Origin: a virus
Taxonomy: Duplodnaviria; Caudoviricetes
Reading direction: 5' to 3' (one strand)
Length of the DNA: 64,000 nucleotides
Virus record (IMG/VR): IMGVR_UViG_3300032038_000059
Location: 9,297 to 73,296 of that record
The notes beneath the pieces are model-generated. The model did not search any database and was not told where the DNA came from. It saw only the letters and a program-made list of their open reading frames with translations. Shown in pieces: positions 2,482-29,466 of the stretch (its first letter is position 1; every line of letters begins with the position of its first letter). Both the position numbers and the translations under genes were made by a program.

Positions 2482-2751
2482 TTAAAATTTCCCCTGATAA
2501 ATCAAAACGTTTTTCTTATGGGCAACAACCATCTGGTGAACGAATTTCTCTAATTCGTCATTGCTATGCATATAAAAATACTGTGGAGATCTATACATAT
2601 TCTCTGAATCGAAATCATCGATGTTATCGCTCACTGCGACTGTGTATTTGATTTCCTTTTCCATGCTAGTCCTTCCCATCGAGCACCCTATAGACGATAT
2701 ATGTTGTTCTATTTTATTTTGTCGTATTGTAGAGAGTAGTATAATTTGCAT
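2482..2751 (-). CDS. Hypothetical protein
   Basis: ORF co-oriented in operon; start uncertain. Confidence 0.5.
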   Translation of the reverse strand: MQIILLSTIRQNKIEQHISSIGCSMGRTSMEKEIKYTVAVSDNIDDFDSENMYRSPQYFYMHSNDELEKFVHQMVVAHKKNVLIYQGKF

Positions 2752-2816
2752 AACTGTTCTGAACTATGCTTTTTTTGAACGGCATACACCGTCTACAAGA
2801 TGCTCGATGCCTTTTG

Positions 2817-4285: not shown

Positions 4286-5002
4286 TTATAGATCTATACT
4301 CTCACCCCTGTGGGCGATGTTAACATTTACATTGTCACCGCAGACTTCTTTAAGTTCACTCAGGATTTTTTTCTCGTCTGCATACTTGTCAGAAAGATGA
4401 CAAGCGATGACATTTTTACATTTGTCAGAAATCGACTTTTCCAAGAAGTTTTTGACAACTTCCAAACTACTGTGACCGCGCAACCTGTGTTCCCTAGCTT
4501 CGTCATTCAGATCGATGTCTTCTGAGTGATTTACGGCTATCAGGAAATGATTTATTTTCCATGTTTTGACGGTAACTGGAATGTATTCGAAGTCGGTAAC
4601 ATAAAGTAATCTCTCGCCATTATCAAACTCGATGATGTACCCGGAATTCGGAGTATCTTCATGTGGCACTGGAATCGGGATGACTTTATAGTGACCGATG
4701 ATTCGAGTTATCTTGTTTGATGACAGACTCCGCACATATTCTCCAGTTATTATTTTGAGGTTTTTTGCAGTTCTATCTTCTGCATATACCGGGATGCCGT
4801 TTTTATTGAAATGGCGATAATACTGTGCGTGATCGCCATGTTCATGAGTTATCAGGCAAGCGTCTATGGCACTCACCCGAAACCCACAAGCAATTTGTAC
4901 ATCTTTCCATTTCATCCCGGCATCAAGTGCGAGATAATGACCGTCATTTTCGATTACATAGCAGTTACCGTTGCTAGAACTCCCTAGAACATGAATTTTC
5001 AT
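4286..5002 (-). CDS. MBL-fold metallo-hydrolase (YycJ-like); true start at 5002
   Basis: MKIHVLGSSSNGNCY, LITHEHGDHA (HxHxDH), PHED, RGHSS, ACHLS. Confidence 0.9.
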   Translation of the reverse strand: MKIHVLGSSSNGNCYVIENDGHYLALDAGMKWKDVQIACGFRVSAIDACLITHEHGDHAQYYRHFNKNGIPVYAEDRTAKNLKIITGEYVRSLSSNKITRIIGHYKVIPIPVPHEDTPNSGYIIEFDNGERLLYVTDFEYIPVTVKTWKINHFLIAVNHSEDIDLNDEAREHRLRGHSSLEVVKNFLEKSISDKCKNVIACHLSDKYADEKKILSELKEVCGDNVNVNIAHRGESIDL

Positions 5003-5834
5003 TTTTATTTTCCTTCCTTGCAGACCAGTAGAAGCCACCTGCTTTATAACGAAAATTGCTATATGCCGCCCTTGCAATGTTTCCTTTGTTGATTGATGTA
5101 ATTTTATGTGCTTCCAAAAATCCATTAAACTCATTCACTATATTCATGTTGGTATCGTATTGCGTGACCTTTATTGTTTTTGATTTTTCTTTTGCATATG
5201 AATCATTACTAGAAGCATACTTGCTAATCAATTCCCTTTGAAGGCAACCACAGCTTTTTGATCTTCCAGAAGTTAAAGACCAAGACTTTACCTTCTTTTC
5301 ATTTCCACAGTCACACCTACAATTCCACACTGCACATCTTTCATATCCGGCAAAAGATAATACAGTCCATCTTCCAAAACGTCTCCCGGTTAAGTCAGTT
5401 GTGTTATATCCGCTTGCCACTACTGGCTCATCTATTGCTCTGTTTTTCAATAGACGTTTTTGCAATGTTTTTTCATTTATTTCCAATAGTTCCGATAATT
5501 GAGCGAGAGTATATTTCTTTCCCTTATATTCAATTATTCTGTTGTTCCTCTTGTTTGACTGTTGTTGCTTGTTTGTAATCCACCTGCAATTAGATGGGCA
5601 GTAGCAGTTATTTACATCTATTCTGTCTAAAGTTAAGTTATCATTGTAACCGTTGTCTAAAGCCCAGTCTCTAAAAGTTATGTAAGAGTTCTTCCACTCA
5701 TCACATACAACTATGCCCCTACCACCGTAATTACCATATTTTCTTCCTTTCTCGTAATAGCACCTAGCTTTCATATTTAGCCAAGATTGGTATAATCTTG
5801 TATTGCTTTCTCCGTGCCATTCTCTTTTCTTCAT
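4974..5834 (-). CDS. Free-standing HNH homing-endonuclease-like protein with CDCG and NUMOD1-like domains
   Basis: RLYQSWLNMKARC...YGGRGIVVCDEW...TLDRIDVN..YCPSNCRW; DLTGRRFGRWTV...WNCRCDCG...SKSCGC; C-terminal VTQYD...KAGGFYW. Confidence 0.8.
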   Translation of the reverse strand: MKKREWHGESNTRLYQSWLNMKARCYYEKGRKYGNYGGRGIVVCDEWKNSYITFRDWALDNGYNDNLTLDRIDVNNCYCPSNCRWITNKQQQSNKRNNRIIEYKGKKYTLAQLSELLEINEKTLQKRLLKNRAIDEPVVASGYNTTDLTGRRFGRWTVLSFAGYERCAVWNCRCDCGNEKKVKSWSLTSGRSKSCGCLQRELISKYASSNDSYAKEKSKTIKVTQYDTNMNIVNEFNGFLEAHKITSINKGNIARAAYSNFRYKAGGFYWSARKENKNENSCSREF

Positions 5835-5854: not shown

Positions 5855-6775
5855 TCACGATATTTCCTCTGCATCTGCTTCGATGACAAGTTCTTCGGCA
5901 TTCGCCTTTTCTGCAATTTCAGTTTCTGCTGTTTCCGCAGGATCTTCAGGAAGATTATCTACGTACTTAACTTCCCCGGATTCATTCAGAACACCCATGT
6001 CAGATGTAAATGCACGTTGCAGATCAATGCTCATAACGCCCCATTTGGAAATTAACTGGCGAAGCATTGTTTTCTCAGCCATTCCGTCAAAATCTTTGTA
6101 CCAGAAGGATGAATAAAGCCATTCGTCTTTCGCAGGATATTTCCCGTCCAGATAATCCTGATACGAAACTTTCGGATATTTACCTCCCTTCGCATTAAGA
6201 CTGAATGCACTGCTGTATCGATCAGCATGAGCAAGCATCTTTTCTTTGCTCCAGTAGATTTCTTTCTTGAATCCGTTGATAAGTTCGAAAGCTGCGTAAT
6301 ACCCAACAACCGGGAGAGATTCCCTTAATTCCATATCCAAAATTGGTTCAAAAACATATTCTTCCGTAATTGGGTTGAATGACTTCAACTCTCCTTTTTT
6401 GACAGCAGATGCTACGATCTTTCTGTACTGACCGCTACGAATCGCAAGCTGCCGATAACCTTTACTCCCAAGCTGAAACTGGGCTTCAGTTACACCATTT
6501 TTATTTTTGTACGGAACGAGAAAAAATTGTCCCAATTGCGGTGAAGGAGATAACTTCAATGACTCTCCAAGCAACGCTGCGGAGAAAATGGAACTGTTTG
6601 TACACTCTGCAAGCGACTTATTTGCCTGTACAGCAGACACAATTGATGCAATAAAAGATTGCGTATTTTTCTCTCCAACCACACCTGCGATATTCTGTCT
6701 GACCGCAGGATTTGCACAAAACGTAGCAAACCCCACTTTCTGGGGTTGTGTATTAGTTACTGATGTCGATGCCAT
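5855..6775 (-). CDS. recT: RecT-family single-strand annealing recombinase
   Basis: LGESLKLSPSPQLGQFFLVPY, AQFQLGSKGYRQLAIRSGQY, MAEKTMLRQL. Confidence 0.95.
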   Translation of the reverse strand: MASTSVTNTQPQKVGFATFCANPAVRQNIAGVVGEKNTQSFIASIVSAVQANKSLAECTNSSIFSAALLGESLKLSPSPQLGQFFLVPYKNKNGVTEAQFQLGSKGYRQLAIRSGQYRKIVASAVKKGELKSFNPITEEYVFEPILDMELRESLPVVGYYAAFELINGFKKEIYWSKEKMLAHADRYSSAFSLNAKGGKYPKVSYQDYLDGKYPAKDEWLYSSFWYKDFDGMAEKTMLRQLISKWGVMSIDLQRAFTSDMGVLNESGEVKYVDNLPEDPAETAETEIAEKANAEELVIEADAEEIS

Positions 6776-6798
6776 ATAATCTCCTTTCTTAAATGTGT

Positions 6799-7233
6799 AT
6801 CATGCACCTAGAAGATGATTTGAATTATGCTGTTCTGTAGTGTTCTTTTGTGATAAAGGCTATGCTAGACAGTTCATTCAAACCATCATTTAGATGCACG
6901 ATGTTATTGTCCTGTCATTTCTTGCGGTTTCATGTTATGATAGTTATTATGTTTTCCTATTATGTAATGGATGCTTCATGCACCCGGAAAACAACTCGTA
7001 TTGTAATATGCTATTTTGTCGTGATTTGACCTGTGGTAAATTAAAGTGTCAGATCGTGTCGTAAACAACACAAGTTGTCATCTAGATGCATGAAAGCCCG
7101 TGTGCTTAAGAATGACTATAAAAGCCATGTCTTGCGATATATTGTTCTGTCCTGTCGTGTTCCGCGCTGTTGTGTCGTTTAGTATGCTATTGTTTGTTCT
7201 TATGACTCTTACAGCCACACCTCAACACACGGG
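6799..7233 (-). ncRNA. Pentamer-repeat guide-like array, downstream part (4 tracts: 6816-6875, 6903-6972, 6997-7071, 7128-7192)
   Basis: 5-nt periodicity T(G/A)TNN on + strand (NN-AYA on the gene strand), 12-15 units per tract, flanked by inverted repeats such as CCCGTGTG/CACACGGG. Confidence 0.85.
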
Positions 7234-7244
7234 CGAAATATTAT

Positions 7245-7877
7245 TTATGCTTCAACATTTGATACATGGAATCTTCCGTAACCAGATGTTCTTCCAGAAC
7301 CAATTCCACTACCGAAACCTGCGAGGTTAATCACATTTACAATCTGCTCAATTCCGTAAACATTCTCCGTATACTTAATAGTGAACGTTGCGCTCCACCC
7401 GGAAAAACGATTAAGGTGAACCAGAACAGGTGCTCCACGCTTCGGAGACATCAGCTTCTCGTCAATAAAGTGATCCGTAAACTTAATCGGGATAAGCCCA
7501 CCAGTTGCAACGATATTCAGTGCAGAATCCATTTTTGTGGAGTAAGTATCAATTCCGTTTCTGACAACTGCTGCGAGAATAGCTTTCTTCAGCCCGAATG
7601 CGGTGATGCATGGAGCATTATTCTGTAAAGCATTGATAAGTGCTTCTTCCGTAAATTCTTTCGGATAGCCATCTCTCCAGTGCATAGCCGTAATAATGCA
7701 TTCCCATTCATTCGGCTTCTCTGTTGACTTCGCCTTGTCTTTGCGCTGATCTGTAAGAGCACGAATTGTCGGTTCGTTCATTTTATTCAGAACCAGATCG
7801 CCATCGCCCTCAATTGTAATTATTGCAGTATTAACCTTAATCTCCTTTAATTCGATTGCCTGTTCCTTCTTTGCCAT
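7245..7877 (-). CDS. Small Cas7/RAMP-like protein (VIPR-like effector candidate)
   Basis: N-terminal ITIEGDGDLVLN strand, F.GWSATFTIKY strand, C-terminal glycine-rich loop AGFGSGIGSGRTSGYGRFHV typical of RAMP folds; sits between pentamer arrays. Confidence 0.8.
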   Translation of the reverse strand: MAKKEQAIELKEIKVNTAIITIEGDGDLVLNKMNEPTIRALTDQRKDKAKSTEKPNEWECIITAMHWRDGYPKEFTEEALINALQNNAPCITAFGLKKAILAAVVRNGIDTYSTKMDSALNIVATGGLIPIKFTDHFIDEKLMSPKRGAPVLVHLNRFSGWSATFTIKYTENVYGIEQIVNVINLAGFGSGIGSGRTSGYGRFHVSNVEA

Positions 7878-7942
7878 AATTTTTCTCCTTTTGTTTTTAA
7901 TTAATTAATTGATATTGTGTTGTGTTGTTCGCGAATAAACAC

Positions 7943-8718
7943 AATTACAGACACTTCTGAAATCCTATGTAGTAAGCTGTCCTATATTATGCTTTATTGA
8001 ATTAAGCTGACCTTTCCTTTTGATTTCCTATCCTGATATGTCCTACTACGGGAGAAATGCCCGTAATTCTATCTATTCGCTTTATACGCTTAATTAACGG
8101 AGTAAGGTATGCTGTAGTATGCTTATTTATGCTGTTGCGTCATGATCTAAACTGTCATAACATACGGATTACTCCGTTAACTAAATGCATATATCATCCG
8201 CTCAACAAGCAACACTGTCTTCGGCTATGCTGAGTTATAGTGCGTTGAATTGACCTGTATTTTCCTACGCTTGGCAATGTTGCCAGTAGAACGGACGATA
8301 ATTTATTTTGTTCTTAATTGAAATCTAGGATTTTATCATTTAGTGTTTTGATTTGATATAGAGCAAATATGCGCTCAACTAGCGATACGAACTTTTGCAA
8401 TGTCCTATACTGAATTTGTCTGCGCTAAAGTATTCTTCGCTGTTGTATGACTATCATGAAATATCGTTAGCTATTTCGGCTCATATCGCCGGGTGAACGC
8501 ATATTGTTTTATACTGTTTTATATTGTTAAAACGTATTCCATAGAAAGCTGTTCTTTCCTGTAATATTGTTGAGCAATTGGCTCGGAAGATGATGCAATG
8601 TTATGTTTTGTGATATGCAGTATTATCATGCTGTTTGTTGTTGCGTCATTCTCTTTGGGATTCTATCTTGTTCTACATGGTGCAAAATCTATTACACCAT
8701 CATCAGAACCAACCGCTC
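7943..8718 (-). ncRNA. Pentamer-repeat guide-like array, upstream part (7 tracts: 7968-8048, 8103-8167, 8216-8275, 8299-8368, 8386-8461, 8500-8569, 8599-8678)
   Basis: Strict 5-nt phase, e.g. tgtct tcggc tatgc tgagt tatag tgcgt tgaat tgacc tgtat tttcc tacgc ttggc; stems such as TTAACGGAGTAA/TTACTCCGTTAA; most stem mismatches become G-U pairs on the minus strand. Confidence 0.88.
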
Positions 8719-8726
8719 AGATACAT

Positions 8727-9221
8727 TTATGAAACTCTTAAAAACTCATCAATAGCTTCAATCACAGAATCAAGTTCCGTTAATCGCTGATATCTATTTT
8801 TGATACCTTCAAGTTCAATCTTTGCCCGATCCAGAAGCTTTTCGTATTCATCTTTATTCTCATAAAAGAACTTCACAGGTTTGTATGTACCTGTTCTAGA
8901 ACTGTCTGCTTCAACTAAGCGAAAAACAGTTTTCTCTTCTTCTTTAGTTTCAGGGTCTTCCCGAATAAGGACGAAATTCTTTACAAGACGTTGAGCCTGA
9001 ATCACACGATACTTTTCAGAAGCTACTTTGTTGTCCCATTCAAAGTAGTTATGCATCGCAGACTTCTTGTTTCTGGCGAGATCTACGATATCTGAAAGCG
9101 TTCTACTTTCACCGTCTCCGTAGATTTCATCGTAAGTCTTCTGCGGATCAATCCCTTTCATAATTCCCGGAAGTTTCCACCCGGCTTTCTGTGAGAAACT
9201 CCACACCGTATTTCCTTCCAT
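8727..9221 (-). CDS. Conserved phage protein next to the RAMP/array locus (candidate accessory factor)
   Basis: MHNYFEWDNKVASEKYRVIQAQRLV motif; immediately upstream of the array. Confidence 0.7.
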   Translation of the reverse strand: MEGNTVWSFSQKAGWKLPGIMKGIDPQKTYDEIYGDGESRTLSDIVDLARNKKSAMHNYFEWDNKVASEKYRVIQAQRLVKNFVLIREDPETKEEEKTVFRLVEADSSRTGTYKPVKFFYENKDEYEKLLDRAKIELEGIKNRYQRLTELDSVIEAIDEFLRVS

Positions 9222-9234
9222 TACTCTCTCCCCC

Positions 9235-11142
9235 TTAGTTAACAGTCAGTTCCTTATCATCTGAAACCTTAAGCAACACCATCTGCCCATCCATCTCAGG
9301 AAGGTTATCTGAAGATAAACATTCTGCATTATCAATGAAAACCGGGAGTTCTACTCCGTACAGCTTTCTGAACGTCTTGATAATCTGAAGACCTGCCGTA
9401 ATACGGTGACCACTATTCAAAGATGAATAAGGAACTCCGTTGTAAGTAATGGAGCAAGTTTCTTTAATGCCACCATTGATCTGGTTTTCAAATAATTTGA
9501 ACTCCAGTCCATCAAACTGAGAATTAATCAACGAAGATAATGCCTTGACGTAGTTCTCCAGTACGAAAAGCTTTCTCTCCGCATCAGAGATTCGCTGTGC
9601 AACACTCTTAAGTTCTTCCGTTTTCGCATCGATATCAGCTTCGATCTGCTGATTAATGCCGACCTGCGCCAAACTCTGCTGCACGGCAGAAATATTAGCC
9701 TTTATCTCAGAGCGTTTCTGCTCTAACTGAAATTTCTGATTCTGAAGTTCCGGGAGATCAACCATCTCTCCGTAAAGTTCCTGAATCTGCTTTTCCAGTT
9801 CGACATATTCAGGGAGATCTTTTCCGTCAGATATTGGCTGAGATTCGGCAGTTTTCAAAGTAGCCGAAACTTCTTCAAGTCTCGTCTTTAAGTTTTCAAA
9901 GGTCTTTTTCTGATTCTCCAGAGATGATTCAGATTCTGCGATCTGCTTCTCCAGTTCGCGAGTCTGAAGATAAAGTTCATTACCCTTATTCTTAGCGTTC
10001 TCAGTTTCATCTTTGTGTCTCTTCTCCCAATCAACCTTGATCTTTTCCAGATCCGTAGTGGGAAGCTTCTGACCACATCTTGGACAATACGATTCATTTT
10101 CTGGGAACTTCTCTTCCAACATCTTCTTGTACAGCTTCAGAAGATTGTTAACCTGTTCCTGCTTAGTTTTAAGACCATTCTTCTTCCGATTAATGTTGTT
10201 TTCTTCAGAAGTTAGCGAAAACTCTGCTATCTGGTATTCTCTCTGCACTGCATCAACAGCACTTCTGGCTTCTCGGACATCGGCACTACGTTTATCATTA
10301 GCAGCCAAGATTATTACTTTCTGCTGTGATTTGAGTTCTGTGATCTTCGATTCAATCGCTGAATTATTTACTTTGGAAACCTTAAAGATCTCTTCGTTTA
10401 CGGAATCGAGATCTAAATTGAGGGAGGATTCCTTTTCTCTTAACGTCTTCTCATCTACCTCGCGTATCTGTCCGTGAAGAGTATTGATTTCCACTGGCAG
10501 CTGTTCTTGACGCTTAGTCAGTTCTTTCTTTTCCAGAGAATATTTCTTCTTTACGGCATCAGGCGATTCCTGAAGAATGTCCGCAGATATCAAATCAAAG
10601 TAATCAACGTTCTTCCCCACTTCTTCCGGGGAGATATTGATCAGGCTCAGAAGTAACTTTCTCTGTTCTTTCCAATCCAAATTCGGAAACGTCATCGGAT
10701 TTGAGAGAATCTGGAAGACGTTTTCATCTACTATTGATGCTATGAAGTCCTCATACTCTCTAGCGGATTTCGGGAAGCCATTAATGAGATAGCTGTCCTT
10801 ATTTCCTGAGAATTCCTGTTCTTCCTGACCGCGCTTTTTCACCCATTTTTCCTCTTGGATGCGCTGAAGCGTTGTCTCTGTTCCATCAATCTCAGCCACA
10901 AGCGTGACGGATATTTTGGTGTGGTGAACCTTGTCACCATTCGAATCCAGTTCTCTGATCTCGAACTTCGAGTTGCCGTGACTGTCCGTTCCGAAGAATA
11001 ACCACCAGATGCTATCAATTACGGTTGTTTTCCCGGTTGCATTACGTCCAGAAATAACATTTGCAAGATCGTTGAAATCTATCTGTAAATTCCTTATGCC
11101 CTTGAAATTTTCAAAGGAAAGAGACTTAAATTTGACGTTCAT
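9235..11142 (-). CDS. SMC/SbcC-like AAA ATPase with coiled coil and CxxC hook
   Basis: FENFKGI, Walker A GRNATGKTT, YCPRCGQ, signature LNSGHR, Walker B PVFIDNAE. Confidence 0.9.
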   Translation of the reverse strand: MNVKFKSLSFENFKGIRNLQIDFNDLANVISGRNATGKTTVIDSIWWLFFGTDSHGNSKFEIRELDSNGDKVHHTKISVTLVAEIDGTETTLQRIQEEKWVKKRGQEEQEFSGNKDSYLINGFPKSAREYEDFIASIVDENVFQILSNPMTFPNLDWKEQRKLLLSLINISPEEVGKNVDYFDLISADILQESPDAVKKKYSLEKKELTKRQEQLPVEINTLHGQIREVDEKTLREKESSLNLDLDSVNEEIFKVSKVNNSAIESKITELKSQQKVIILAANDKRSADVREARSAVDAVQREYQIAEFSLTSEENNINRKKNGLKTKQEQVNNLLKLYKKMLEEKFPENESYCPRCGQKLPTTDLEKIKVDWEKRHKDETENAKNKGNELYLQTRELEKQIAESESSLENQKKTFENLKTRLEEVSATLKTAESQPISDGKDLPEYVELEKQIQELYGEMVDLPELQNQKFQLEQKRSEIKANISAVQQSLAQVGINQQIEADIDAKTEELKSVAQRISDAERKLFVLENYVKALSSLINSQFDGLEFKLFENQINGGIKETCSITYNGVPYSSLNSGHRITAGLQIIKTFRKLYGVELPVFIDNAECLSSDNLPEMDGQMVLLKVSDDKELTVN

Positions 11143-26600: not shown

Positions 26601-29466
26601 ATGTTTCGCCTTGTTCAAGTCCGTTAAGTGTAGCGGAGGAAATGGTAGCTGAACCAAAGCGGATAAATGTTCGGCTTGCAGATGTGTTTGTCTGCCTGAT
26701 TCCATGAGCCGCAACAGTCTTCGTTCCTGTATTAAACGCAGTAACGGAAGATTGTTCAATAAGCATCGGATAATTATCAACATTAGATACATCAGGATTA
26801 AGCGTATTCTTGATTAAATTTCTTCCACCAATCTGAAGATCTTCGATTGCTGTATCATCAGTATACTTGTTCCGCTTTTGCCAGTCTTCCCCAACAAAAT
26901 CCCCCTCTGCTCTCGTGTTAATGCAAGTCATAATGTCAGATGTCGAACCATCAAACCACAAGTCTCCGACCGCATACGGTGTAGTAGGCTGTTCTATAAA
27001 TATCTGAGCCTTACCATCAATTTCATCAAAAACAGCTTTAGGAGGATTTGCATTCAATTCATCCCATGATGTTCCGTTCCATCTATAGTACGATTGAACT
27101 CCTTCTGCGGAATTATACCAGAGGTCACCAATATGTTCAGAACGCTTGCTAGGTGTATCCCAATCCGTTGCAGGATCATTTTCCTGTGACCATGTTTCAG
27201 CCTTGCCATCGATTTGACCCTGAATATTTTGAAGTGTTGTGGCGTAGCTTCCTTCAATAAAAGTATTTAACGCTGTATCATCCGTATACTTTGAGGCTTT
27301 GTTCCAATCAGTCGCAACATAATTGCCACTATCCCTATGCACAGCACACTTCAGGATATCTCCAGTTTCACCTTGTACCCACAAATCGCCAATATCATAC
27401 GGAGGAGTCGGTTGTGCAACAAAGATCCTTTTCTTTGAATCTGCCGTAGTCTGCGCAGCTTCTGCCTTGGCGATAGCTGTTGTAATGCCAGTGTCCTCAA
27501 TCAGTTGCCATCCCCATGTGCCATTATTATCCATAAAGCGATAGGCATGACCTGTAGATTTCCAATAGAAAACGTCACCTTCGTGCGCTTTCTTATCAGC
27601 TTCCGTAGTCCAATCAGATGCAGGAGCGTTCTGCATAGTAGGCTCATAATCGTAATACCAAGACTCAATCTTATCATCTAGTTGGTCTTGAATATTTCCG
27701 ATGATGGAATTTACTTCATCTTTATATCCTGCTATAGTTTGATCCGTATAAGTCTTAGAATCATTAAGTGCTTGAGTGGCACGATCTGTTGCAATCGAAT
27801 TAATCGTATCCCCAGATGTAAGACTAAATTCAGATGCGACAATCCTGACAAAACCAGTAGCTGTATCTGCCGAAAACGTTACATTCCCCTGATTATCCCT
27901 GATAACTAATTGACCAGTATCAATCCAATCCGCATTAATCCCAGTCGCAGTGAGAATTCTGGTGATCATGTCACCATCTACTGTTAATCCATACCAGTTT
28001 TCTCCACCGTCAGGCGTAACCATAACTCCGACATCTGAAATCTTAATCTGGACATCAGAATCTGCAAGTAATCTTTTATTATGAAGGTAAGTAACCGTTC
28101 CAGTTTGATCGGTCACTCGTGTTTCATATAAACCGCTTGCATTATTTACTCTATCTGTAAGGTCATTCTCGACACGTTCTCTTATTGTCCGTTCGTTTGT
28201 TAACCGCTTGCGGAGTTCCACGTAATTCTTAGTTTCCGCAGAGAATCTCGCAGAACTATTTCTTACTGGAGTCTGAGCAGATGATACTGTCTGTTGCGCT
28301 CCACTCGTAGAGAATGTTGTCTTCGAAACAAGAATCGGATAAATATTATTTTTACGGTCAAGAACAAGTGCAACATCACCTGCTTCGATACAAGGATCAG
28401 AGCCATGCGTAATGGATGCCTTTCGGAATTTAGTGCCGATAAGTTGCAAGCCAAGATATCCAACAACTTCATTTGCAGTATCAAGAGTAATAAATGGATT
28501 ATTCTCTACCTCGATAACATAACCAGTAGTTCCGCTCATATACTCATGAATAACATCAGTACTTGAAGCTTCATCTGTCTCATCTTTCACGAGAACCCTT
28601 ACGCCAGTAATAACTACATCATCAATAGAAACACTTCTATTATATAAAGAAGTGATATGATGAACCGTTACTATATCAGCGAATGTTCCTGCGTCATAAT
28701 CGTATCCAGTAGTCCACGGATTGAATGTTCCACCATCGGCAGTTGCCCCGGAAGCATAGGGAATAGCTTGGTCAAATATGCCACCATCAAGAATTGTTTC
28801 CGTATCTTCTTGCAGAGATAATGTAGGATACCATTTAATTTCCAATTGTCCATACGGATTACATCTAGCGAAACATCCTGAGATCTGAGTTGCCCACGCC
28901 AATACTTCACGATAAGTTGTTGATTCATCCTCCGGGCGAGTTGCAACAATATAATCATCATTTGGAAATGTCAGCGTATTAAGCTGAATGCCACACTCCG
29001 TACAAACATCTCGCACGATAGAATTGAGAGTAGCCGGGAATGTTAACTTACTATCATACGCTTTGTCGAATGCAATCATATTGTCAAGACATTCAAGTGA
29101 AATCAAATCTCCGTTGAATGTCGCATTATTAACAGTATATGTACCACGCCTTACGATTTCGGGTTCTCCGTCTAATGCAAGACCGATGCGCAAAACAACT
29201 TTTGCATTTGTGAAATCATAAGTATCGTAATCTCCGTAAATATTGTTGATAACAAGGTTGCATTTATTTACGATAGTAGACCCGATCTGCAAATCATTTT
29301 CGGCAGAAACGGCATCTTCGTAAGAAAATCCACCTTGCCAAAAATCTTTATTCTCCAGATTTAGAGTTACGCCATTTTCAAGAGCAATATCTGCGTATTC
29401 CAGATACTGTCTTTTATCATTTGATATGGCTAAGTGCCATGCGTTTGAAACATTTATCATCTGCAC
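23605..29466 (-). CDS. Large tail tip / host-specificity protein (1953 aa) with repeated modules
   Basis: N-terminal Tal-like region after the distal tail gene; three [WY...P...W...H.GD.WY / IF..QP.PPY..GDLW...DW....KYTDD] modules; CBM-like GGRNLIKNT...IKLEKG.KATDWSPA domain. Confidence 0.85.
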   Translation of the reverse strand: MQMINVSNAWHLAISNDKRQYLEYADIALENGVTLNLENKDFWQGGFSYEDAVSAENDLQIGSTIVNKCNLVINNIYGDYDTYDFTNAKVVLRIGLALDGEPEIVRRGTYTVNNATFNGDLISLECLDNMIAFDKAYDSKLTFPATLNSIVRDVCTECGIQLNTLTFPNDDYIVATRPEDESTTYREVLAWATQISGCFARCNPYGQLEIKWYPTLSLQEDTETILDGGIFDQAIPYASGATADGGTFNPWTTGYDYDAGTFADIVTVHHITSLYNRSVSIDDVVITGVRVLVKDETDEASSTDVIHEYMSGTTGYVIEVENNPFITLDTANEVVGYLGLQLIGTKFRKASITHGSDPCIEAGDVALVLDRKNNIYPILVSKTTFSTSGAQQTVSSAQTPVRNSSARFSAETKNYVELRKRLTNERTIRERVENDLTDRVNNASGLYETRVTDQTGTVTYLHNKRLLADSDVQIKISDVGVMVTPDGGENWYGLTVDGDMITRILTATGINADWIDTGQLVIRDNQGNVTFSADTATGFVRIVASEFSLTSGDTINSIATDRATQALNDSKTYTDQTIAGYKDEVNSIIGNIQDQLDDKIESWYYDYEPTMQNAPASDWTTEADKKAHEGDVFYWKSTGHAYRFMDNNGTWGWQLIEDTGITTAIAKAEAAQTTADSKKRIFVAQPTPPYDIGDLWVQGETGDILKCAVHRDSGNYVATDWNKASKYTDDTALNTFIEGSYATTLQNIQGQIDGKAETWSQENDPATDWDTPSKRSEHIGDLWYNSAEGVQSYYRWNGTSWDELNANPPKAVFDEIDGKAQIFIEQPTTPYAVGDLWFDGSTSDIMTCINTRAEGDFVGEDWQKRNKYTDDTAIEDLQIGGRNLIKNTLNPDVSNVDNYPMLIEQSSVTAFNTGTKTVAAHGIRQTNTSASRTFIRFGSATISSATLNGLEQGETYTLSFDASWRVLSSDTGKADTKMYPMKAMLYTNKASASTFAIDQQESFADVTQADKGTEMSGRCEFTFTVDMAVTKLYLLIANERTTSSNYAIGDFIELRNIKLEKGGKATDWSPAIEDQSNETEQLLNYFVDGEFKNTITDIQGQLDAKAETWYQSTDPSTAWNTSDLKKEHEGDLWYCTAINNPTYLQNQTYRWNGSTWVKQDAPKEVFDRIDGKAQVFTGNTVPKPPYYVGDLWFNATQDNTGDIKTCVTQRLSGNGLDSDWKVRNKYTDDAKIDNWLDGTPSEIPKFSSFLDVLPNTINATVKSSGIYAEKASIIATINNSGESEVTIDSNKVNLTAYSKISDVQSMISQKSDEITITFIQKANEKNSSYHGKGVPTTSNYPALSWATNEEKQNHDGDMYIDSDTNNTYQYNAIANTGLLLTFSSDSRTESLVNDYVVIYYKLGNYYYASERFGGSTIANKTFFVPSHEFYVYFHTDSSASNYYGFRFSSITRASDQRVYGTVDFLPNYTPIEVRGNTYPQSAHNPYGSNLDQLWKYTYSSSFTVTINGSWTLVKDPDITTLNQSVSGLSTTVSDLSTQVTHKIDADKVITQINLEQYKASIKAEQINFTGFAKFVEHDDLSKTGKTTSIYGGYIQTNTLSASTIRGGTLKLGGTDGTDKTKTYGNGQLYVYDSNDVQKIKIDNTGAHFGRITSGTNVNKYLTEIDVSGNLTTKSLMAIDYIKLTGNSSSYLTFPLKVTNGNTKISGTVGFGTQANTDLGLKLNWTSDAGSNGYETFNAVFSPFFGQHRETYYNRRSGNTTTIDYNEVIKIQQGYSTTYLGEGTLTGLVFQYSGGSNFYFTRNEIYANALRTVQPKNRVVKTKDYATRLLYCYETPTPCFGDIGEGVISEDGLCYVSIEAIFSETIVTDSYYVFLQKHNSGDCFVKERKPYYFIVSGTPGLRFSWELKAKQIGYDQLNLERYDQSMPNIDSGIDYSALAIQHIQDIQSEREVSS

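Follow-up and report, generated by a model that had tools for sequence, protein, structure and literature searches.

A predicted non-GGY VIPR guide RNA in a phage genome matches recT genes of phages and prophages of gut Clostridia

First described in 2026, VIPR is a CRISPR-like phage silencer (bioRxiv 10.64898/2026.04.26.720920) in which Vipr, a RAMP protein acting alone, forms a polymer along a guide RNA that consists of GGY/NN pentamers (bioRxiv 10.64898/2026.04.26.720920,.720927). The NN bases of the guide pair with DNA such that every third base is skipped, usually a codon wobble position (bioRxiv 10.64898/2026.04.26.720920). This code, its wobble alignment and the targeting of rival recombinases have been documented (bioRxiv 10.64898/2026.04.26.720920,.720927, 10.64898/2026.10.15.759431), and for the guide vrRNA4 of phage SUSP1 the skipping of wobble positions blocks synonymous escape (bioRxiv 10.64898/2026.10.15.759431). 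Four residues of the SUSP1 Vipr (H17, R138, D177 and W178) are reported to read two guanines. The vrRNA of a VIPR is expected to be expressed, to measure ~100 nt and to co-purify with its Vipr. Non-canonical VIPR arrays with the units GAC/NN, CAC/NN, WGT/NN and TGH/NN have been found by a genomic language model, and the available text of that report accepts non-GGY arrays as divergent VIPR (bioRxiv 10.64898/2026.10.21.760802). Here we analyse an intergenic tract of a phage genome and propose, with a probability of roughly 0.8, that it is one vrRNA guide of a phage-encoded VIPR, aimed at recT of other phages and prophages. VIPR as a kind is already published, and the present locus is a non-GGY member of it.

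The stretch of DNA that was analysed (the window) comprises 64 kb of a 73,296-nt IMG/VR virus record, the completeness of which is estimated at 91%. On its minus strand, an SbcC-like ATPase gene (9235-11142) is followed by P0002 (8727-9221), a candidate accessory (vap) gene for a protein of 164 aa without a Pfam family, by a gene-free stretch of 850 nt (7878-8726) in which a periodicity scan and parse identified an array of about seven further A-H-A/NN guide tracts upstream of vipr, by the vipr gene itself (7245-7877; P0001, 210 aa), and, across a gene-free stretch of 469 nt that contains the tract under study (6776-7244), by the phage's own recT (5855-6775; Pfam RecT, E 2e-41). Beyond recT the same strand carries genes for an HNH endonuclease, a metallo-hydrolase and SSB. 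The HNH gene (4974-5834) has a weak NUMOD1 match, lies between recT and the metallo-hydrolase gene, the start of which it overlaps, and is possibly a homing endonuclease insertion. Rfam at gathering thresholds returned two tRNA genes elsewhere in the window and otherwise nothing; with E up to 1 it gave two chance-level matches only in 6700-8800, hammerhead being absent. A promoter/terminator consensus scan of 6600-9400 was uninformative. Among 50,697 deposited phage genomes, no match was found to the 469-nt intergenic region by blastn or to P0001 by tblastn.

Several lines of evidence identify P0001, a single-domain RAMP/Cas7-like protein, as a Vipr. A profile built from 79 P0001 homologues matches PDB 36pp_D, 'SUSP1 Vipr protein', with E 3e-14 over residues 6-188 of 202; the AlphaFold model (pLDDT 96) has a Cas7/Csm3-like fold, and the top Foldseek matches of this model are Cmr4, Csm3 and Cas7 (E ~1e-6 to 1e-5, TM ~0.5). 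P0001 is, like the described Viprs to which it is homologous, a single-RRM RAMP with a G-loop, and more than 2,000 homologues are present in metagenomes. In all nine related loci examined (Vipr 60-98% identical to P0001), vipr has A.A.. tracts on either side, on its own strand. A homologue of P0002 adjoins vipr in 12 of the 15 related loci that were searched, among them all four of the canonical GGY type, and the three loci without one are short contigs with little upstream flank. Because this homologue stands beside vipr in A-H-A and in canonical GGY loci, P0002 is a candidate accessory gene and, judged by this gene neighbourhood, likely belongs to VIPR. The P0002 homologues show 28-99% identity (loci L001-L003, L055, L057, L058, L060, L061 and L075-L078, of both the A-H-A and the GGY type), and weak relatives occur in Gordonia phages.

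The predicted guide consists of 12 units of the form A-H-A plus NN (6911-6970, minus strand), delimited by phasing, periodicity and target matches. Read on the minus strand from 6972 to 6911, the sequence is (agc)AT ccaTT acaTA ataGG aaaAC ataAT aacTA tcaTA acaTG aaaCC gcaAG aaaTG acaGG, and the string of free dinucleotides of the 12 units is TT TA GG AC AT TA TA TG CC AG TG GG; the sequence-only reading that drew attention to the tract had listed identical dinucleotides, the leading AT included. A stands at the first position of 9/12 units and at the third of 11/12, and the 5-nt rhythm of the 60-mer was reached by none of 20,000 shuffles. Runs of A.A.. are confined to the minus strand in the whole window, where they lie at 6901-8671 (around P0001) and at 2693-2757. 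In a sequence logo pooled over 108 units, the first position is A in 72%, the second is H (C 50%, U 32%, A 16%) and the third is A in 91%; the information content of the free positions 4 and 5 is 0.05 and 0.0 bits, and G makes up 7%, 2% and 4% at the three triplet positions. Such a triplet corresponds neither to GGY nor to the variants YNNGG, NNNGG, YNNNG and NNNNG of the discovery paper. The arrangement is otherwise that of VIPR, where tracts of some 9-16 pentamers with hypervariable NN flank vipr: runs of 7-15 units were parsed on both sides of the gene. Because its A-H-A + NN units lie downstream of a gene homologous to that of the SUSP1 Vipr, we interpret the tract as a VIPR guide RNA. Two extra A-H-A-like units (acaAT aacAT; 6901-6910, minus strand) separate the guide from the next hairpin, and their dinucleotides mismatch the targets described below; around the 51 viral target sites, the flanking bases disagree with the dinucleotides AT on one side and AT AT on the other, and a pattern of 15 dinucleotides has no match in the window. 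Since the dinucleotides just outside the 12 units fail to match targets, the working guide is taken to be 6970..6911.

Folding of minus-strand RNA from 6776-7244 predicts three long hairpins with large A/C-rich loops, with a z-score against shuffles of -6.9 for the minus strand versus -2.7 for the plus strand. Hairpin 1 (7096-7234, minus strand; inverted repeat I1, fold and parse) has a 33-bp stem, and its loop is a 15-unit guide; hairpin 2 (6975-7094, minus strand; repeats I2, I4 and D6, fold and tract parse) has a 30-bp stem around a 12-unit guide; and hairpin 3 (6799-6902, minus strand; inverted repeat I3 and minimum-energy fold) has a 27-bp stem and holds a short 8-unit tract in its loop. 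The arms of hairpins 2 and 3 are paralogous. The guide under study lies between these two hairpins, and hairpin 3 is a possible 3' cap for it. The sequence-only reading had correctly placed the tract between two long hairpins, the arms of which are 6799-6825/6876-6902 and 6975-7004/7065-7094, and had noted a shared core, which all four arms do contain as CATGCACC / TAGATGCA. Its further suggestion, that alternative pairing of these arms could close the tract, finds no counterpart in the minimum-energy structures predicted for the whole region and for the piece by itself: when 6876-7004 was folded alone, the tract was not closed via the TGCA arms (z = -1.7). On paper a pairing of the inner arms around the tract is feasible, with ~10 bp including 3 G-U, and it is conceivable because hairpins 2 and 3 are paralogous. 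Nothing observed here supports the accompanying idea that the arms re-pair or otherwise give rise to new guides.

The natural targets of the guide were sought with its 12 central dinucleotides, joined by the published rule of one skipped nucleotide into a pattern of 24 specified bases. Exact matches to this pattern number 51 among viral contigs and 12 among bacterial genomes (Ruthenibacterium, Oscillospiraceae, Ruminococcaceae, Anaerocolumna, Erysipelotrichales and others), 63 in total. Given a match probability of 4^-24 per site, ~0.004 matches would be expected in the 596-Gb genome collection; the same dinucleotides with 0, 2 or 3 skipped bases have no exact match each. A search of 401 genomes from the family to which one of the matches belongs found the true pattern, at up to 2 mismatches, in 5 genomes; the backwards pattern was absent from all of them. 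All 63 sites lie inside recT genes, which are 46-61% identical to the phage's own recT, and at every one of them the guide-sense strand is antisense to recT. At the site, the codon series CCx CAx CTx GGx CAx TAx TAx ATx GTx CCx TAx AAx specifies PQLGQYY(M/I)VPY(K/N), and the skipped bases fall on codon wobble positions at all sites, as in the published natural targets of VIPR. The viral sites comprise 23 distinct site-plus-flank sequences, among which the skipped bases vary freely; with wobble positions skipped, one guide therefore covers many diverged recT alleles. No Vipr gene lies within the 63 target fragments, and none of the 51 viral ones contains a strong match to another tract of the locus. 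Scans for exact one-skip matches of three other guides, namely the loop guide of hairpin 2, part of that of hairpin 1 and an orphan tract at 2698-2772, gave 0 each; as these scans covered exact matches only, targets with mismatches would be missed.

In two separate bovine-gut studies (runs X6 and X7) the loop of hairpin 1 (7117-7201) has been swapped for ~82 nt of other sequence with the arms kept, and it is also swapped in two phages with 98%-identical Vipr (L055 and L056). Loops are exchanged while stems are kept, and hence guides turn over as cassettes between conserved stems, a turnover that is compatible with recombination at the arms. The 12-unit tract is intact in the bovine-gut assemblies X1, X2 and X7, which come from three separate studies, and rewritten in X6. 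In the two phages with 98%-identical Vipr, an unrelated recombinase replaces recT and the guide has the same 29-nt deletion; because of this deletion, the guide is regarded as dispensable for them. The unrelated recombinase is ~330 aa long, and one of the two phages has an additional Cys-rich reading frame of 89 codons, the insertion of which separates hairpin 2 from the truncated guide; these features lie at L055 2222-2491 and 2682-3578 and at L056 1735-2424.

Three other explanations of the tract were weighed, of which the most serious concerns the phage's own recT. A local gapped scan finds the best site in the window inside this very gene (6507-6541, plus strand), with 20/24 read bases matched in wobble alignment; the next best site has 17/24. 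The guide is directly upstream of recT, with the site 370 nt downstream of it, and the match of 83% exceeds the 80% target cut-off of the discovery paper, for the systems of which no self-targets at >=80% NN match are reported (10.64898/2026.04.26.720920). From its position in the recT leader, the guide might then tune or time recT of the phage itself via the Vipr complex. We consider this improbable, since own recT under the footprint reads PQLGQFFLVPYK, with four mismatches that each fall in a different dinucleotide, of which three are neighbours in the centre (YYM is changed to FFL, and PQLG contains a TTG leucine codon), while silencing is abolished by disturbed NN pairing (bioRxiv 10.64898/2026.04.26.720920); perfect 24/24 matches exist in 63 foreign recT genes, and guide remnants persist in relatives in which the recombinase is unrelated. 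Own recT is probably spared, and self-binding at its site is unlikely. Slightly less probable again is that the tract has lost its activity and is a relic, or serves solely as a scaffold for Vipr to bind, and that its match to recT is historical, for example because the guide was born from recT-like sequence. The deletion or rewriting of the guide in close relatives would suit such a relic, but the full 12 units remain intact in contigs of three separate studies, and all 24 read bases match living recT alleles that differ at their wobble bases, which decay would not preserve.

The third explanation, which we regard as very improbable indeed, is that the guide targets a zinc-ribbon protein gene on the guide-sense strand. 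The sequence-only reading had recognised a guide that reads its target with every third base skipped, and in this it agrees with the published VIPR code and with the natural exact targets. It had also decoded the dinucleotides as NNx codons into the zinc-ribbon motif YGT[IM]YYCP[SR]CG. This decoding is arithmetically possible and correctly computed, save that TAx can equally be a stop codon. Every natural match has a stop in the guide-sense frame (..GTM*YCPSCG) and a long RecT frame opposite, and no class of match other than recT was found. The 'CPxCG' of the decoded motif is the antisense image of 'PQLGQ' in RecT: in the collections searched, a zinc-ribbon gene is not targeted, because the motif is the antisense shadow of a recT motif and is interrupted by a stop codon in the real targets. 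Also considered was recognition of triplet repeats at 2-nt spacing by a TRAP-like ring or an RNA sponge, an idea dropped in view of the Vipr homology and the exact gapped targets.

We therefore return to a VIPR guide against foreign recT as the preferred reading, for which the following course of events is proposed. The locus would probably be transcribed from the minus strand, with vipr or downstream of it, as suggested by minus-strand RNA folding far better than shuffles and plus-strand RNA much less so. By homology with the SUSP1 Vipr, one protomer of P0001 would occupy each five-base unit, holding A-H-A and exposing the two free bases, and the 12 free dinucleotides could then pair with DNA, skipping every third base. 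The code matches the sense strand of recT in other phages, and in prophages, of gut Clostridia (Oscillospiraceae, Ruminococcaceae, Erysipelotrichales and others), and binding may block transcription of the rival recombinase and so handicap a competing or resident phage, by analogy with the SUSP1 experiments. Silencing in this clade is likewise presumed from SUSP1, the Vipr of which has different base-reading residues, and the guide is presumed to be expressed and processed.

In the 120 closest RecT proteins, the motif varies at its three central residues as [FY][FY][MLI], and only ~11 have the fully matching motif. RecT alleles 94-100% identical to that of the phage (proteins P0272-P0283) differ almost only by F/Y under the footprint (FFL, YFL, YYL), a split that fits selection at the footprint without proving it. 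One bovine-gut contig combines a guide bearing the 29-nt deletion with a recT that has an F-to-Y change towards the target sequence.

Variation of the Vipr protein itself is accompanied by a change of the triplet. The clade up to ~35% identity with P0001 has the motifs LNKM / LNRF / GIGSGR, with A-H-A arrays in 9/9 loci examined, and distant homologues have H..W / RYR / GIGEWR, with canonical GGY/NN arrays in 3/3 loci. This co-variation of residues and triplet suggests a switch of handle specificity from GGY to A-H-A. A more far-reaching hypothesis, which we put forward tentatively and hold to be rather unlikely as a whole, is that the switch proceeded via replacement of H by N in the first beta strand, of RYR by LNR in the thumb and of D/E-W by S-G in the G-loop and created a natural orthogonal Vipr/vrRNA pair, and that the phage, in addition, directs guides against the rivals' versions of genes of its own (recT, 20/24; a gene for 1953 aa, 24/30), its own alleles being substituted under the footprint. 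If a handle switch is true, rival orphan guides would be kept from hijacking the Vipr. The orphan tract at 2698-2772 (minus strand) is a stem-closed run of 15 A-H-A/NN units ~4.5 kb from vipr, between genes for a replisome organiser and an ERCC4 nuclease; it matches 24/30 read bases, wobble-aligned and in sense, in the phage's own 1953-aa gene (28340-28383; AGDVALVLDRKNNI), and an exact scan of 11 of its dinucleotides found no foreign target.

The locus offers a clean natural target for a non-GGY VIPR guide: it extends the skip-one-base code to A-H-A/NN guides and widens the set of known VIPR targets by the RecT annealing proteins of Clostridia phages, in a phage that carries a footprint-variant allele of the gene it targets. 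It is also an example of how single-strand decoding of a guide can mislead, and the residue changes that accompany the changed triplet are leads for the engineering of orthogonal Vipr/guide pairs.

Compared with known systems, the locus shares with the backbone of class 1 CRISPR (Cas7/Csm3/Cmr4) the RAMP fold, the glycine-rich loop, a protein filament along the guide and periodic flipped bases, but class 1 CRISPR has a period of 6 nt with 1 sequestered base, versus 5 nt with 3 here, and the present locus has neither repeats and spacers nor other cas genes. No CRISPR repeat-spacer array was detected in a repeat search of 6700-7300, a CRISPR repeat family was absent from the Rfam matches in the window, and in place of the array and further cas genes of a class 1 CRISPR-Cas locus the neighbours are recT, HNH, SbcC-like and SSB genes. 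The non-canonical arrays found by the genomic language model (10.64898/2026.10.21.760802) likewise have a Vipr-like fold beside 5-nt arrays with a non-GGY triplet; in the available text of that report they are described without strand, targets or skip rule. The A-H-A variant has probably already been glimpsed there, because 'TGH/NN' is A-H-A/NN on the opposite strand, and the A-H-A clade may be among the clusters of that report. Closest is type II VIPR (Escherichia phage SUSP1 and a Pseudomonas fulva prophage; Vipr, vap and vrRNAs; PDB 36pp), with which the locus has in common a homologous Vipr, guides built from ~12 pentamers that each leave two bases free, arrays on either side of vipr, a candidate accessory gene next to it, and wobble-aligned targets with one skipped base inside genes of rival mobile elements. 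It differs in that the triplet is A-H-A, not the GGY of the SUSP1 type, with SUSP1 residues H17, R138, D177 and W178 aligning with N31, L155, S194 and G195 of P0001; in that most guides lie in loops closed by 27-33-bp stems, whereas those of type II VIPR precede a 3' pseudoknot tail; and in its hosts, which are gut Clostridia, unlike those of SUSP1 and of the P. fulva system. Finally, like SUSP1 vrRNA4, which is directed against a satellite recombinase (10.64898/2026.10.15.759431), the guide has its footprint on codon-determining positions that are conserved in a rival recombination enzyme; the target here is the RecT annealing protein of phages and prophages, in contrast to the satellite's excision recombinase, and, unlike in the SUSP1 case, the phage has a homologue of the target of its own, which is substituted under the footprint.
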